Source of the DNA: Candidatus Doudnabacteria bacterium
GTDB taxonomy: Bacteria > Patescibacteriota > Doudnabacteria > UBA920 > VMFF01
Direction: 5' to 3'
DNA length: 49,580 bases
Assembly: GCA_963840645.1 (NCBI GenBank)
Contig: CAWIZL010000003.1
Coordinates: 1-49,580 of the forward strand
This document shows positions 1,771-7,006 of this stretch, one piece after another (positions within the stretch are counted from its first letter, which is position 1; each line of letters opens with the position of its first letter). Both the position numbers and the translations under genes were made by a program. The notes under the pieces are model-generated. The model saw only the letters and a program-made list of their open reading frames with translations, did no database searches and was not told where the DNA came from.

Positions 1771-1776
1771 TGTTCT

Positions 1777-1782
1777 ATTATA
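1777..1782 (-). promoter_or_regulatory. -10 box TATAAT 6 nt before cysS ATG (leaderless-type promoter)
   Basis: minus strand reads TATAAT-agaaca-ATG. Confidence 0.6.
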
Positions 1783-1806
1783 TGCGATTTTAAGGGCTTT
1801 AGATAC

Positions 1807-1835
1807 TTGACATAAGTATTATATTGTGCTATTAT
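1807..1835 (+). promoter_or_regulatory. sigma70-type promoter
   Basis: TTGACA (1807-1812), 17-nt spacer, TATTAT (1830-1835). Confidence 0.75.
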
Positions 1836-1841
1836 GTTACT

Positions 1842-2089
1842 TCAAAGTCAAAAGGCTTTGAGAAGCACTTTAACAACTGAATAGCCTAATTCCTGTTGTG
1901 GAAAGCAACTTGGCGGTTTGTAGGTTATCCTATATGTCGCCAGATTACTTTCCATGAACGTGGAGAGGCGGTAAATAGGCAGCAGCGTAGGTGAGAGATA
2001 GCCGCGCTGCCGAGAAAATATATCTACCAGTTTGATGCTACTGGTTAAATAAGATCCCGCGATACATCCAAGGATGTAGCAGCTTTTTC
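1842..2089 (+). ncRNA. putative structured leader RNA with boxA-like antitermination site; family not recognised
   Basis: hairpin 1842-1861, GCACTTTAACAA at 1865-1876, stems 1899-1954, 1978-2011, 2026-2045, 2063-2078 followed by a T tract, then AGGAG and ATG 2102. Confidence 0.5.
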
Positions 2090-2101
2090 AGGAGAACAGA
2101 A

Positions 2102-2422
2102 ATGTACCATACAGATGTATCTGTTGAGGTCAGCAGGGGAGCTGCTTGTGAGCTTTCCCTAAACGAAGTTAAGAATCAGATCGTTGTCCTCCTCCGGGCT
2201 TTTGGGGAGTACATTCCAAACTCCGAGTTGATCGAGAGTGTGGATGACGGGTACGTGCTCGTCCGGTCGCAATCCAAGTCCGGCATTGACGCGGACGGGG
2301 TGACAGCTGCACTGAAAGAGTTTTCCAGGCCGACCTCGGTCTTTCTCTACGTAAGTTTTGGAGGCGCAGACGTGGAGTGCAATCACAGCAGCCTCTGCAT
2401 TGAACGAGGACAGGCTTGGTAG
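2102..2422 (+). CDS. hypothetical protein (106 aa)
   Basis: ATG preceded by AGGAG at 2090-2094; no recognisable motif. Confidence 0.55.
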   Translation: MYHTDVSVEVSRGAACELSLNEVKNQIVVLLRAFGEYIPNSELIESVDDGYVLVRSQSKSGIDADGVTAALKEFSRPTSVFLYVSFGGADVECNHSSLCIERGQAW

Positions 2423-2442
2423 TTCATCAAAAAGAGGAAAAA

Positions 2443-2973
2443 ATGAAAAAAGAATTCACCGAGAAGCTGTACCTCCCCGATGGTTGGGAGGCGATTCAGT
2501 ACGCGACATCCCTGGTTCTCGCAGAGTCTGGATTCACGATGACAGACGTCCACGCAGTAGGACGCTTTGCCGTTGCCCTGGCTCAGCGGAGGTTGGAAGG
2601 GAGGGGGTATACAGAGATACGTTCGTGGATACCCATCATCCACCGGTTGCAGAAGGAGTTTCGCAACAAGGCTAAACGAGATGAGGATTCCCTTGGAAGG
2701 GAGGTGTACCACTGCATGATTAAAATTCTCGATCTGCTGGCGCTACCCCCAAATCGAGGGGGTGTTGTCCACACCGGCGTAATACGCCACGGGATCCTCT
2801 CAAAGCTCTGGGCGTGGAGGTTTGGCAAGGAGTTCCGGAATGATTCCAGATCCGATGCTCTTCCGATTCTTCCGCTCAGAAGCGGCGATCACTACATGGA
2901 TGTCTATGCTCTTCCTACGCCAGAAGAGCGGAGTGCTATCCTGGCTCAGTACAAGTATCGATACTCGAGCTAG
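2443..2973 (+). CDS. hypothetical protein (176 aa)
   Basis: in-frame ATG 2443 after GAGGA within ORF 2416..2973; followed by a terminator. Confidence 0.65.
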   Translation: MKKEFTEKLYLPDGWEAIQYATSLVLAESGFTMTDVHAVGRFAVALAQRRLEGRGYTEIRSWIPIIHRLQKEFRNKAKRDEDSLGREVYHCMIKILDLLALPPNRGGVVHTGVIRHGILSKLWAWRFGKEFRNDSRSDALPILPLRSGDHYMDVYALPTPEERSAILAQYKYRYSS

Positions 2974-2998
2974 GCTGCCTCTAACGGCGACATCTCAC

Positions 2999-3037
2999 AC
3001 GGGAACACTACACCACGTAGTGTTCCCGTTCTTTTTA
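2999..3037 (+). terminator. intrinsic terminator (likely bidirectional with corA)
   Basis: 13-bp perfect stem ACGGGAACACTAC/GTAGTGTTCCCGT, 5-nt loop, then TCTTTTT. Confidence 0.8.
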
Positions 3038-3040
3038 TAC

Positions 3041-3965
3041 CTAGAAGTACCTTCTCTTCTTGAAAATCGCAAACAGAATACCAGAGCACGCAGCTGCAAT
3101 TGCCAGAACAATCCAGAACGCGTACGGGTTGCCAGCTAAGGGCAGGTGCTCAACGCTCAGGCTGAATGCCAGCACAACGAACGTTGCTGGCAAGAATACC
3201 GCAGACGCAATGGTAAAAATTTCTGTAATCTTGTTGAGGCGGTTTGCTGCCAGTGCTTGGTTTGCATCCTGCAGTGCGTCAGCGGTTTCTTTTTGAATTG
3301 CCAAAATGTCCCAAATGTTCTCAGCGTGGTCGAGCAGGCTTGCGTAGTAGTCGCGGCTGTCTGGAAACATCACGTACAGCTCCTTTGACTGCATGAGCTT
3401 CTTTAAAATAAGGTGGTGCGTCTTCATGATGCGCCTGAAGTCTATGATGTTGCGCTTCATCAGCGAGATTGCCTCGAGCGTCTTCACGGACAGGTCTTTG
3501 AAGATCACGTGCTCGATTTCGTCAACGTCGAACGACATGTGCCTGCCGAAGATTGGGAAGCTGCGCTTGAACAGCCGCTCGAGAATTTGGTACAGCAGCC
3601 ACCCAGCATTCCCTGACATGAGCTCCGCGGCGCAGCTCCTCGTGCTCAATGGTGCCGGCAACCATGTCTGTCATGGTGAACATTGACCCATCGTGGATGG
3701 TGATGAGGTAGCCTTTGCCAATGAAGATGTCAACTTCTGCTGGTTTGATCTCGCGCGCCTTGCGGTCAAAGATGGGAAACAGCATGACAATGAACTGGTA
3801 CGTGTCGCGCGCTTCAACCTTTGTGTGCTGCGAGGTGGCCGCAACATCTTGCAGGTCGAGCGGGTGGAAGCTGTAGTTTTTTTTGAGAAAATCAATTTCA
3901 GCAGCACCAGGGCTGACAATGTCTATCCACTTCAGATTTTTGGTGTGAATGGCACGAACGTTCAT
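3041..3965 (-). CDS. corA: CorA-family magnesium transporter (one frameshift)
   Basis: WIDIVSPGAAEIDFLKKNYSFHPLDLQDV N-terminus, LLDHAE..D, RLNKITEIFTIASAVFLPATFV and two C-terminal TM helices; ORFs 3522..3965 and 3041..3661. The canonical GMN motif appears altered (FSLSV). Confidence 0.85.
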
Positions 3966-4466: not shown

Positions 4467-7006
4467 ATGCCCGTACTCTCAACTCTAACACTGCTCTACC
4501 TGCTCCTCGCCGTTCTGGTGGTTGGCTTGGCGGCGGTGTTTTTTTACTTTTACGCAAAGCACAGGAAGCTCATGGGCTTCACCGTGCCGCGCTTCAAAGA
4601 GTCGGTGTTCCTCGAAATCCAAGTGCCAAAAGACATTGGCGATGCTGACATGGGCAAGTCATCAGGCAGCAGCGCCGGCGCGGGTGGGAGCGATGACCAC
4701 ACCAAGCAGCTCATCTCAGTTGCAGAGCAGCTGTACACCGCGCTGTCAGAACTCACCAATGGTAAGTCTGGCAAGCGCGGCGTAGAGTACCTTTCATTTG
4801 AGATCGCAGCCGTGAACCAGAAAATTGGGTTCTACGTGAACTGCTCGCCAGCTGTGCGTGGCCTCGTAGAAAAGCAAATCCACGCGCAGTACCCGTACGC
4901 GCACGTTGAAGAGGTTCGCCCGTACAACCCGTTCCCAAAAAATTCTGTTCAGGCCAGCGCAAAGCTCACCACCAAGAAGGGCTACTTCTACCCGTTCCGC
5001 ACGTACAAGGAAACAGAGACAGATCCGCTGAACGCCATCACCAACGCAATGTCAAAGCTCGGGGCGGGTGAGAGCGCCGTGCTCCAGCTCGTCATTAGCT
5101 CTGCCGGCAGTTCGTGGCAGTCAAAGCCCCGTAAAATGGCGCTCGAAATTCAGCAGGGTAAAACGCCAGAGCACGTTGACCGCGGCGACTTCCAGAAGTT
5201 TGCAGGGGAGCTGGTGAGTGCCGCAAAGGGAAAAAGTGACAGGCAGGCAGACCACAGCAAAGACTTAACAGGCTTGCACGCGCCAATAAACCTCACGCCG
5301 CAGCAGCAAGAGGTGGTGAAGCGGCTGGAGCAGAAGGCGAGCAGGCCTGGGTTCCGCACGAACATCCGCCTCATCACGTCAGCGGGTACGCAGGCAGAGG
5401 CAGACAGCAAAATGCGCGACGTTGTGTCATCGTTCGTGCAGTACGCACTGCCGCCGTTCAACAGCTTCAAGGTGGCAAAGCAGAACGACCGCCACGTGCT
5501 GCTCGACTTCATCGTGCGCGGTTTCAACGACATTGGCATGATCCTGAACACAGAAGAACTCGCCAGCATCTGGCACGTGCCAACGCCAATGATTGAGACG
5601 CCGAACGTGAAGTGGCTCACGTTCAAGAAGCTGCCACCACCAATCAACATGCCAAAGGACGGCGTGAGCCTGGGCGTGAACAGCTACCGCGGCGTGAACA
5701 CTGAGGTGAACATTTCGCGCGACGACCGCCGCCGCCACATGTACCTCATTGGCCGCACTGGCACTGGCAAGTCAAACTTGATTGCATCTATGGCAGGCCA
5801 AGACATCTTGAACGGGGATGGCGTGTGCGTAGTTGACCCGCACGGCGATTTAATAGAAAACATCCTCGAGCGCATTCCAAAAGAGCGCGCTGATGACGTC
5901 ATTTTGTTTGAGCCGTTCGATGTGGAGCGGCCAATGGGGCTGAATATTTTAGAAGTTCACGGCGAAGAAGAGAAAGACACTGTCGTGCAGGAAATGATAT
6001 CCATTTTCTACAAGCTCGTCACAGACCCTGCAATGCTCGCCCAATGTTTGAGCACAACATGCGCAACGCAATGCTCACGCTCATGGCAGACGGCGAATTT
6101 CCAGGTACCATCACAGACATCCCGCGCATCTTCACTGACACAGAGTTCCAGAAGTACAAAGTAGCAAAGCTGCAAGACTACGTTGTGCGCGCGTTCTGGG
6201 AAAAAGAAATGGCAAAGACCTCAGACTTCCACAAGTCTGAAATGCTCGGCTACCTCATCTCTAAAGTCGGGCGCTTTACAGAAAATTCTATGATTCGTAA
6301 CATTGTTGGGCAGGCAAAGTCCTCGTTCAACTTTCGCGAGGCAATGGACTCTGGAAAAATTCTTCTGTTGAACCTTGCAAAGGGCAAGACAGGGGAGATA
6401 AATGCAAAACTTTTGGGGTTAATCATTGTGTCAAAGCTGCAGATGGCAGCCTTAGGTCGTGCGAACGTGCCTGAAGACGAGCGCCGCGACTTTTTCTTGT
6501 ACGTTGACGAGTTCCAGAACTTCATCACAGATTCGTTCGCTACCATTCTGTCTGAGGCGCGCAAGTACCGCCTGAACTTAATCATTGCGCACCAGTACTT
6601 AGGCCAGCTTGAATCTGCTGCGGGGTCGCAGGGTGCTGCAACCAATTCACTGCGCGACGCCGTATTCGGCAACGTGGGCACAGAGGTGTGTTTCAGAATT
6701 GGCGTTGAGGATGCAGAGACAATGGCAAAAGAGTTCTCGCCAACTGTGAGCGCGTACGACCTGGTAAACATTGATCGCTTCAACGCGTACTCAAAGTTGA
6801 TGATACAGGGCACAGCTTCAAAAGCGTTCAACATGGCAGTGCGCCGCTTGCCAGACACAGCGTCAAAAGAGCGCGCAGCTGCCATTCGACAGCTGTCACG
6901 CTTGAAGTACGGCAGGCCGCGCGCAGAAGTTGAAGCAGAGCTGTCGGCAAGTGCACACGCGGCCGAGCGCACCCAGGCCATTGATTTGCCAGCAGATGGG
7001 CGGTAG
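4467..7006 (+). CDS. membrane-anchored VirD4/TraG/HerA-like (DUF87/TrwB-type) ATPase; frameshift near 6045
   Basis: N-terminal TM helix, Walker A GRTGTGKS, VVDPHGDL, Walker B FFLYVDEFQNF, LSEARKYRLNLIIAHQYLGQL, FGNVGT. Confidence 0.85.

Follow-up and report, generated by a model that had tools for sequence, protein, structure and literature searches.

A boxA-bearing structured leader with a conserved rod hairpin at the head of an inserted gene cassette in a Candidatus Doudnabacteria genome

The stretch analysed here (the window, 49,580 nt) is contig C3 (GenBank CAWIZL010000003.1) of a four-contig, 985-kb genome of a Candidatus Doudnabacteria bacterium, a member of the Candidate Phyla Radiation (CPR), with a completeness of 88%. 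Close to its first end, two genes lacking recognizable relatives (ORFans; open reading frames ORF1 and ORF2) are preceded by a predicted leader RNA in which a hairpin, an exact copy of the boxA element of ribosomal RNA (rRNA) leaders and a conserved rod-shaped hairpin, designated H1, follow a near-consensus promoter. The leader is read here as an rrn/nut-like element for loading Nus factors at an inserted accessory cassette, with H1 as a reusable module beside boxA, a reading to which we assign about an even chance of being correct. To our knowledge, few examples of control by Nus factors and boxA have been described outside rRNA, all of them in Proteobacteria. Here, a perfect rRNA-type boxA stands at the head of the predicted mRNA of a cassette of inserted ORFans, in a CPR species apparently without Rho, and beside it is a hairpin whose family covaries across ~30 species and is missing from Rfam.

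Leader architecture and folding

Transcription is predicted from the promoter position to start at ~1842. The leader then consists of a 5' hairpin (H0), boxA, H1, three further hairpins (H2, H3 and H4), a T tract and a Shine-Dalgarno (SD) sequence. In a first-pass annotation of this DNA, a promoter, a hairpin at the start, boxA, four further stems, a T tract and AGGAG had been listed, and all of these were found in place (table 1). Hairpins equivalent to H0 precede the boxA-like element in four other genomes (G098a, G075, G019 and G119; G numbers denote genomes, f numbers families, C numbers contigs and L numbers loci).

The 264-nt leader (1838-2101) was folded with an energy of -86.8 kcal/mol, compared with -64.9 ± 4.7 kcal/mol for dinucleotide shuffles (z = -4.63, 0/200), and thus passed the shuffling control suggested in the same annotation. 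The full helix of H1 (1891-1964, enclosing a three-helix core at 1899-1954) reached -33.5 kcal/mol (z = -5.1), and none of 200 shuffles folded as well. Because the reverse complement of the leader folds about equally well (z = -5.3), folding energy alone leaves the strand undecided; the strand is set by the predicted promoter, boxA, the conserved G.U pairs of H1 and the SD sequence. The 6-bp stem of H4 contains only two G-C pairs, and H4 with the following T5 was not called by the terminator scan.

Both strands of positions 1700-2500 were compared with Rfam 15 (T-box, riboswitches, 6S, tmRNA, RNase P, signal recognition particle RNA and others) without a match at E ≤ 10, and at the gathering score only two tRNAs were obtained in the window. 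A leader-trailer processing helix was looked for and not found.

A second copy of the promoter (GATACTTGACATAAGTATTAT...TATTAT) is located at C2:78771-78804 (minus strand; L002), where it precedes a secreted-protein gene and is 88% identical over 34 nt. The long identity extends outside the hexamers and for this reason suggests that a promoter module was copied.

boxA as an rRNA-leader signal of the lineage

The element at 1865 had been described as a boxA with one mismatch to that of E. coli. The mismatch is present, but the element is more than a look-alike: it agrees exactly with the consensus that rRNA-leader boxAs have in the order and in Chloroflexota. In a blastn comparison with relatives, the 21-mer GAAGCACTTTAACAACTGAAT gave a single extra match, an identical copy in G011 located ~135 nt upstream of the 16S gene in the same orientation. 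Among 146 species of the order, the 18-mer GCACTTTAACAACTGAAT with up to two mismatches occurred 60 times in 50 genomes, as against seven occurrences of a backwards control. Of 31 loci examined (L005-L035, with the G011 site counted twice, as L005 and L012), 23 are followed by a 16S or 23S gene at a distance of 100-300 nt. The exact 20-mer GCACTTTAACAACTGAATAG was found in 27 GTDB contigs, nearly all from Chloroflexota; a 16S or 23S match starts within ~110 nt downstream (mostly 30-110 nt) in 15 of them, and several others have too little downstream sequence. By this comparison the boxA is genuine for the lineage, matching the rrn-type boxA of the order and of Chloroflexota.

Within its own genome the leader boxA is the best copy. 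A search for further copies, as had been proposed in the first-pass annotation, returned exact GCACTTTAACAA only once; the genome's own 23S leader carries a one-mismatch copy (GCACATTAACAATTCAATAG) and its own 16S leader a degenerate one (GCCCTTTCCCAACTGAATA). The 16S gene (C2:155060-157474; 2.4 kb with insertions, with a tRNA ~600 nt upstream) and the 23S gene (C2:216586-221236; 4.7 kb with a group I intron at L036 4878-5126, followed by 5S) are unlinked, ~59 kb apart, and each has a leader of its own. Comparison of the cassette leader by blastn with 60 relatives returned boxA only, and comparison with other boxA leaders returned nothing. The leader was rejected as a duplicate of one of the genome's own rRNA leaders, since their boxAs are more diverged and no further similarity is present.

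The genome encodes NusB (C4:444918-445292) and NusG (C4:118224-118535, the single NusG N-terminal domain in the genome), and by visual inspection the end of rpsJ was located near C4:317.7 kb. The nearest named homologues of this NusG come from Candidatus Doudnabacteria and the Patescibacteria group. Control of the RfaH/ops or LoaP type was discarded, as the single NusG has no specialised paralogue and the GGCGG of H1 resembles ops superficially only.

The H1 hairpin family

The first homologues were found, in another family of the order, with a single-sequence covariance model of H1 and H2 of the window. A second model, R2, was then built from a curated alignment of 12 H1 hairpins; E-values of the models are rough. 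R2 detects H1 in 31 of the 146 species, with 1-4 copies per genome. Of the 30 species other than that of the window, 27 belong to family f2 and two to f6 and f4, whereas family f1, that of the window, contributes none. The window H1 has the second-highest score in the H1 family.

H1 is ~68 nt long, with the core 5'-AA.UUGGCGG / UYGCCAG.UU-3', an invariant 5'-UGGCG...GCC-3' and a variable apex. A U.G wobble is conserved at columns 20-53, as are G.U wobbles at 25-48 and 26-47. These fix the strand of H1, because they would be mismatches on the other strand. Where both strands were matched, the annotated strand always scored higher, usually by far, with the smallest margins at the weakest matches (e.g. 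G076, 29.6 versus 27.1 bits).

Standard pairs fill 91.7% of cells in the alignment of 12 sequences, compared with 32-51% when the 3' partners are slid by one to three columns; compensatory changes on both sides occur in 13 of 23 pairs, and no column shuffle (0/500) reached any of the five measures used. In the 18 H1 sequences outside the training set of R2, 93.9% of cells are paired as against 34-51% after sliding, in an alignment that is model-fitted and leans towards structure. Six homologous H1 loci gave no match to Rfam at E ≤ 0.1. Judged from its conservation and covariation, H1 is an uncatalogued structured RNA family. The earlier proposal of an undescribed structured RNA tied to a Nus-factor boxA is supported in that the leader has no Rfam match and that homologues with covarying pairs exist.

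Two other identities of H1 were considered and rejected. Mimicry of 5S rRNA helix I was set aside as helix I of the genome's own 5S differs, and an integron attC-like site was set aside as H1 occurs at the 5' ends of genes, in 1-4 copies per genome and in no arrays, with conserved G.U pairs.

Leader conservation and contexts of H1

The whole leader architecture recurs in one other genome, G119 of family f2, behind a TTGACG-17-TATAAT promoter and a boxA-like GCTCCTTAAAAA. The G119 H1 carries a 66-nt apical insert, one stem pair of H2 is compensated (G-C to A-U), and H4 is likewise followed by SD and ATG (for the parts of H2, H3 and H4 that are kept, see table 1). From boxA to SD the two leaders are 72% identical; ORF1 and the 110-aa ORF that follows the leader in G119 are unrelated. 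A model of H2-H4 matches only G119 among the 146 species, so that conservation of H2-H4 rests on two sequences, and a pattern scan of metagenomes for H2-H3 returned three chance matches in coding DNA.

Among the 30 H1 loci compared, a promoter with at least 11/12 matches is located 46-102 nt upstream of H1 in seven. H1 is preceded at 1-31 nt by a consensus or variant boxA in the window and in G114 (GCTCTTTAACAA), G075 (GTTTTTTAACAA), G035 and G019 (GTTCTTTAAAAC/T), G082 (GTTCTTTGGCAA) and G119 (GCTCCTTAAAA, the variant also seen in G098a). Five of the 30 H1 loci reached a boxA score of 8 bits or more, compared with 3% of control windows. The ORFs after H1 differ in all 30 loci and are mutually unrelated; small membrane proteins, secreted proteins and ORFans are among them.

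In G109, G125, G079 and G100, H1 is instead the 3' module of small RNAs of ~200-250 nt that end in a terminator. In these RNAs (L080, L083, L088 and L098, corresponding to G109, G079, G100 and G125), a conserved 5' domain ~60-130 nt upstream of H1 has the form GUGGGCCUAA..AGGAAGGC..AUGGAGGUCG..GACCUUUUGGCCUCAUC..UUUAGACCCACAAU. Small RNAs of genus g6 have a different conserved 5' domain before H1.

The inserted cassette

In the window, 1270 nt (1771-3040) separate corA and cysS, both of which are on the minus strand, opposite to the cassette. Six relatives from the window's family were compared: five have 30-54 nt between the corA stop and the cysS start, on one strand, and G003, where the cysS start is ambiguous, gave a calculated distance of -68 nt. 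The insertion holds the promoter, the leader, ORF1, ORF2 and a terminator, all on the plus strand, and by comparison with these relatives it is a self-contained accessory cassette inserted between corA and cysS. It has the own promoter and terminator, and the position between genes that are adjacent in relatives, of a moron-like autonomous cassette, and no recognizable prophage surrounds it. No flanking repeats were found around the insertion. Searches for a phage or plasmid origin gave no PHROGs, PADLOC or phage-DNA matches, and no true H1 was found among viral contigs.

Table 1. Positions of the predicted features of the leader and the cassette in the window.
Feature	Position	Strand	Remark
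Sigma-70-type promoter: TTGACA (1807-1812), 17-nt spacer, TATTAT (1830-1835), extended -10 TG	1807-1835	plus	11/12 matches
H0, 9-bp hairpin at predicted 5' end, where boxB sits in rrn leaders	1841-1862	plus	-9.4 kcal/mol, z = -3.4
boxA, GCACTTTAACAA	1865-1876	plus	once in the 985-kb genome
boxA with conserved 3' extension, GCACTTTAACAACTGAATAG	1865-1884	plus	matches rRNA leaders
H1, conserved rod hairpin, family-defining module	1893-1960	plus	78.3 bits, model R2
H2, hairpin with 14-nt loop GGUGAGAGAUAGCC	1978-2011	plus	loop identical in G119
H3, hairpin ACCAGU...ACUGGU	2026-2045	plus	CCAGUUUG/ACUGG core kept in G119
H4 (ACAUCCAAGGAUGU), stem 2063-2078, outer G-C clamp 2059-2083, then T5 (2084-2088)	2059-2088	plus	ACAUCCAAGGAUGU, the 14-nt core, identical in G119
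SD sequence AGGAG, 7 nt before ATG at 2102	2090-2094	plus	read from sequence
ORF1, 106 aa, ORFan	2102-2422	plus	SD AGGAG; host-like coding statistics
ORF2, 176 aa, ORFan	2443-2973	plus	own GAGG ribosome-binding site; host-like coding statistics
Intrinsic terminator closing the unit, 13-bp stem and T-rich tail	2999-3039	plus	terminator scan, strong
Lineage-specific insertion, 1.27 kb	1771-3040		between cysS (ATG at 1770, minus) and corA stop (3041-3043, minus); comparison with relatives
Divergent promoter, predicted: TTGAAG, 16 nt, TATAAT	1818-1845	minus	10/12 matches; overlaps plus-strand promoter

Searches of 5.8 billion and 1.8 billion proteins with ORF1 and ORF2 returned the query itself and one weak repeat match, and no match was obtained in Pfam, PHROGs, PADLOC, NCBIfam or PDB. 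An arginine-rich motif was not found in either protein. Single-sequence AlphaFold models of the two were of low confidence (predicted local distance difference test, pLDDT, 52-57).

As the insertion separated cysS from corA, the predicted minus-strand promoter may now serve cysS. A T-box or other cysS leader on the minus strand was rejected, with no Rfam match there and with only 30-54 nt upstream of cysS in the relatives. The cysS gene (790-1770, minus) contains an in-frame TAG at 1255-1257 and at least two frameshifts, corA (3041-3965, minus) a frameshift near 3625-3672, and a large ATPase gene (4467-7006) is split. In the first 5 kb of the contig, ORFs of 200 aa or more cover 23% of the sequence, compared with 66% genome-wide. 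Stop-codon reassignment was ruled out for the TAG in cysS, all three stops being used about equally.

Proposed mode of action and alternatives

The following mode of action is put forward on sequence features. The promoter would fire a leader that resembles in layout the beginning of an rRNA operon or a nut site of phages, and the nascent RNA would fold its 5' hairpin and so expose a perfect lineage-type boxA. NusB and S10, together with NusA and NusG, would bind boxA and remain on the RNA polymerase. H1, just downstream, would work with boxA, either as the second half of the loading signal or as the site of a dedicated factor, and the modified polymerase would traverse 220 nt of hairpin-rich leader, the weak H4/U5 stop included, and enter ORF1 and ORF2. 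Since Rho seems to be absent, the role may be one in anti-pausing, RNA folding or translational gating rather than an anti-Rho one.

Several observations weigh against this reading. No Rho RNA-binding domain was found in the genome (88% complete), and with Rho not found a classical anti-Rho role would be moot. The leader contains a single terminator-like element, which is weak and has no conserved counterpart in G119. In E. coli, boxA represses rather than promotes suhB expression (PMC5725501), and a boxA effect here may thus be positive or negative. A strong boxA stands beside H1 in only 2/30 loci, and many H1 copies are found in terminator-ended small RNAs with other 5' domains, so that H1 does not depend on boxA. 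Finally, several genes within the first 5 kb of the contig are disrupted, and poor sequence quality or local decay around the insertion is therefore indicated.

An unlikely alternative, although the best placed of those considered, is that the functional molecule is a small RNA, stand-alone or processed, of ~245 nt (1842 to ~2088), or the H1 rod alone, acting in trans or as a protein sponge, with the ORFs expressed only by read-through. It would fit the ORF-less, terminator-ended RNAs that carry H1 as their 3' module in G109, G125, G079, G100 and possibly G113, the conserved 5' domain that H1 follows in genus g6, the resemblance of H4 with T5 to a weak terminator, and a conservation of H1 that exceeds everything downstream. 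However, a good SD sequence and ATG directly follow H4 in both the window and G119, the T tract is not conserved and H4/T5 failed the terminator scan, and the coding statistics of ORF1 and ORF2 are host-like, with a strong terminator placed only after ORF2.

The same T tract bears on the attenuator that the first-pass annotation had offered as one possibility. An attenuator working by an intrinsic terminator was not supported: H4 is weak and was not called by the scan, and in G119, the only full-length homologue, the U run is CCCUUU. Since, in addition, SD pairing differs between the leaders, a conserved terminator-attenuator is unsupported. For the riboswitch named beside it no positive evidence was obtained.

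A related alternative, and a somewhat less probable one than the small RNA, is a translational switch responsive to a ligand or protein, in which H1-H4 would form a sensor that opens or closes the ribosome-binding site of ORF1, boxA being incidental or acting in suhB-like repression. Loops and single strands (GGUGAGAGAUAGCC, AUAUCU and ACAUCCAAGGAUGU) are conserved between the window and G119, for which reason tertiary contacts or a binding site are suggested; CUGAA beside boxA pairs with UUCAG abutting the SD sequence in the minimum-energy fold; and translation of suhB is repressed by Nus factors through a boxA in its 5' untranslated region (UTR; PMC5725501). Against these stand the genes behind H1 leaders, which are unrelated and mostly ORFans, unlike a riboswitch regulon, the different sequestration of SD in the two full-length leaders, the derivation of H2-H4 conservation from two sequences only, and the lack of an Rfam aptamer match. 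The long-range helix closing boxA onto SD, present in the minimum-energy fold of the window, was rejected as a conserved switch, being absent from G119.

Least probable of the three, and in our view improbable, is a hitch-hiking or decaying module, that is, a mobile promoter-leader fragment or the relic of a foreign rRNA or accessory-gene leader copied with the cassette and now functionless: the distribution is patchy (the genome is the sole one of its family with H1, and only G119, from another family, shares H2-H4), the genome holds a second copy of the promoter, disruptions affect the two flanking genes and the one beyond, and boxA is nearer to the order consensus than are the genome's own rRNA boxAs, but all signals are intact and in canonical order, H1 keeps the conserved wobbles and its high score, its copy number gives no sign of repeat-like spread, and neither flanking repeats nor phage- or plasmid-type matches were found.

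The Nus-loading leader is kept as the working interpretation, being the most parsimonious one and in keeping with the established boxA targets outside rRNA and with the hairpin and boxA seen before cas1-cas2 in Chloroflexota. A broader proposal, which we consider doubtful, is that boxA and H1 together form a cellular, nut-like bipartite signal of CPR bacteria and hence a new class of Nus-loading RNA element at accessory genes. Such a signal may also load an H1-binding protein, with H1 reused in stand-alone small RNAs. Its target genes may often be horizontally moving ones, including ORFans and genes for surface and small membrane proteins, and in an organism without Rho it may be an RNA-folding and anti-pausing device or a translational gate, not an anti-Rho system. 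If the coupling of boxA and H1 is functional, bacteria with minimal genomes would drive newly acquired genes with their rRNA transcription machinery, and H1 would offer a concrete RNA motif with which to seek a new RNA-binding partner, as well as a marker for accessory gene cassettes in Patescibacteria. If it is not, the H1 family would still be a new, well-supported structured RNA for cataloguing.

Comparison with known systems

The antitermination leaders of rRNA operons contain a boxB hairpin, boxA and boxC, and are served by a complex of NusB, S10, NusA, NusG, SuhB and S4. The cassette leader shares with them a predicted strong promoter, a predicted hairpin and boxA in the same order, an identical boxA and structured RNA downstream, whereas H1 and two ORFan genes replace the rRNA and the processing helix between leader and trailer is missing.

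The nutL/N leader of phage lambda comprises boxA, a boxB hairpin, a structured leader of ~200 nt and a 107-aa ORF. It resembles the cassette leader in its strong promoter, its conserved hairpin a few nucleotides after boxA and its long structured leader before a small first ORF. It differs in that the boxB of lambda is a 15-nt hairpin with a GNRA-like loop and H1 a rod of 68 nt capped by a UUAU loop, and in that ORF1 has no arginine-rich motif and no phage context. A lambda-type nut site was rejected on the rod after boxA and on the lack of an arginine-rich motif or phage family match in ORF1 and ORF2, leaving a resemblance that would be functional only.

HK022 put and Bacillus EAR are cis-acting RNAs for processive antitermination that act without boxA. 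Like them, the cassette leader would place conserved, structured RNA close behind its promoter, with variable cargo following; unlike them, it has a boxA, and there is no similarity to either in sequence or in Rfam.

Known non-rRNA boxA targets of the Nus complex are the suhB 5' UTR, rpsJ and a ParE-like toxin of Citrobacter koseri (Baniulyte et al. 2017, PMC5725501), and CRISPR (clustered regularly interspaced short palindromic repeats) arrays are also listed as boxA targets (Stringer et al. 2020, as cited in PMC7862264). In these, as in the predicted cassette transcript, boxA is located in the 5' UTR of an RNA other than rRNA, and the cargo is of an accessory or mobile type. In those of them that are mRNAs, however, boxA lies within ~50 nt of the start codon, whereas here it is ~225 nt upstream with a conserved multi-hairpin RNA between, and the present lineage is a CPR one without detectable Rho. 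Morons are similar in being self-contained insertions between conserved neighbours with ORFan cargo; unlike them, the present cassette is outside any recognizable prophage and has a conserved regulatory leader.

Further boxA units

Other candidate non-rRNA boxA units were seen in the course of the searches. In the same genome, at C2:190697 (minus strand), TTGACA-17-TTCAAT is followed by a one-mismatch boxA (GCACTTTAAAAAC) at the predicted start, a ~150-nt hairpin leader and a long membrane-protein ORF, and this is possibly a second mRNA under boxA control. Three non-rRNA boxA units were seen in family f4 (L008 in G017:C4, L010 in G012:C1 and L007 in G030:C1); one consists of a promoter, hairpin, boxA and ~150 nt ending in a terminator, like a small RNA, and in the other two a leader of 110-250 nt with hairpin and boxA precedes a hypothetical or membrane ORF.

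In three genera of family f2 (G038, G060 and G024; L023 1400-2200, L028 92-900 and L031 1400-2200), a promoter and boxA are followed by a conserved RNA of ~600 nt that is not in Rfam, contains the motifs CTCGTCATAGC, CCACCGTAAGG and CAGACGCTA, and adjoins a small DksA/TraR-like ORF downstream. In Chloroflexota (L050 4180-5540, and also L059 and L073), a 16-bp hairpin and the exact boxA 20-mer are located 35 nt before cas1-cas2, with a type I-E-like CRISPR array downstream and a Cas6e-like gene just upstream.

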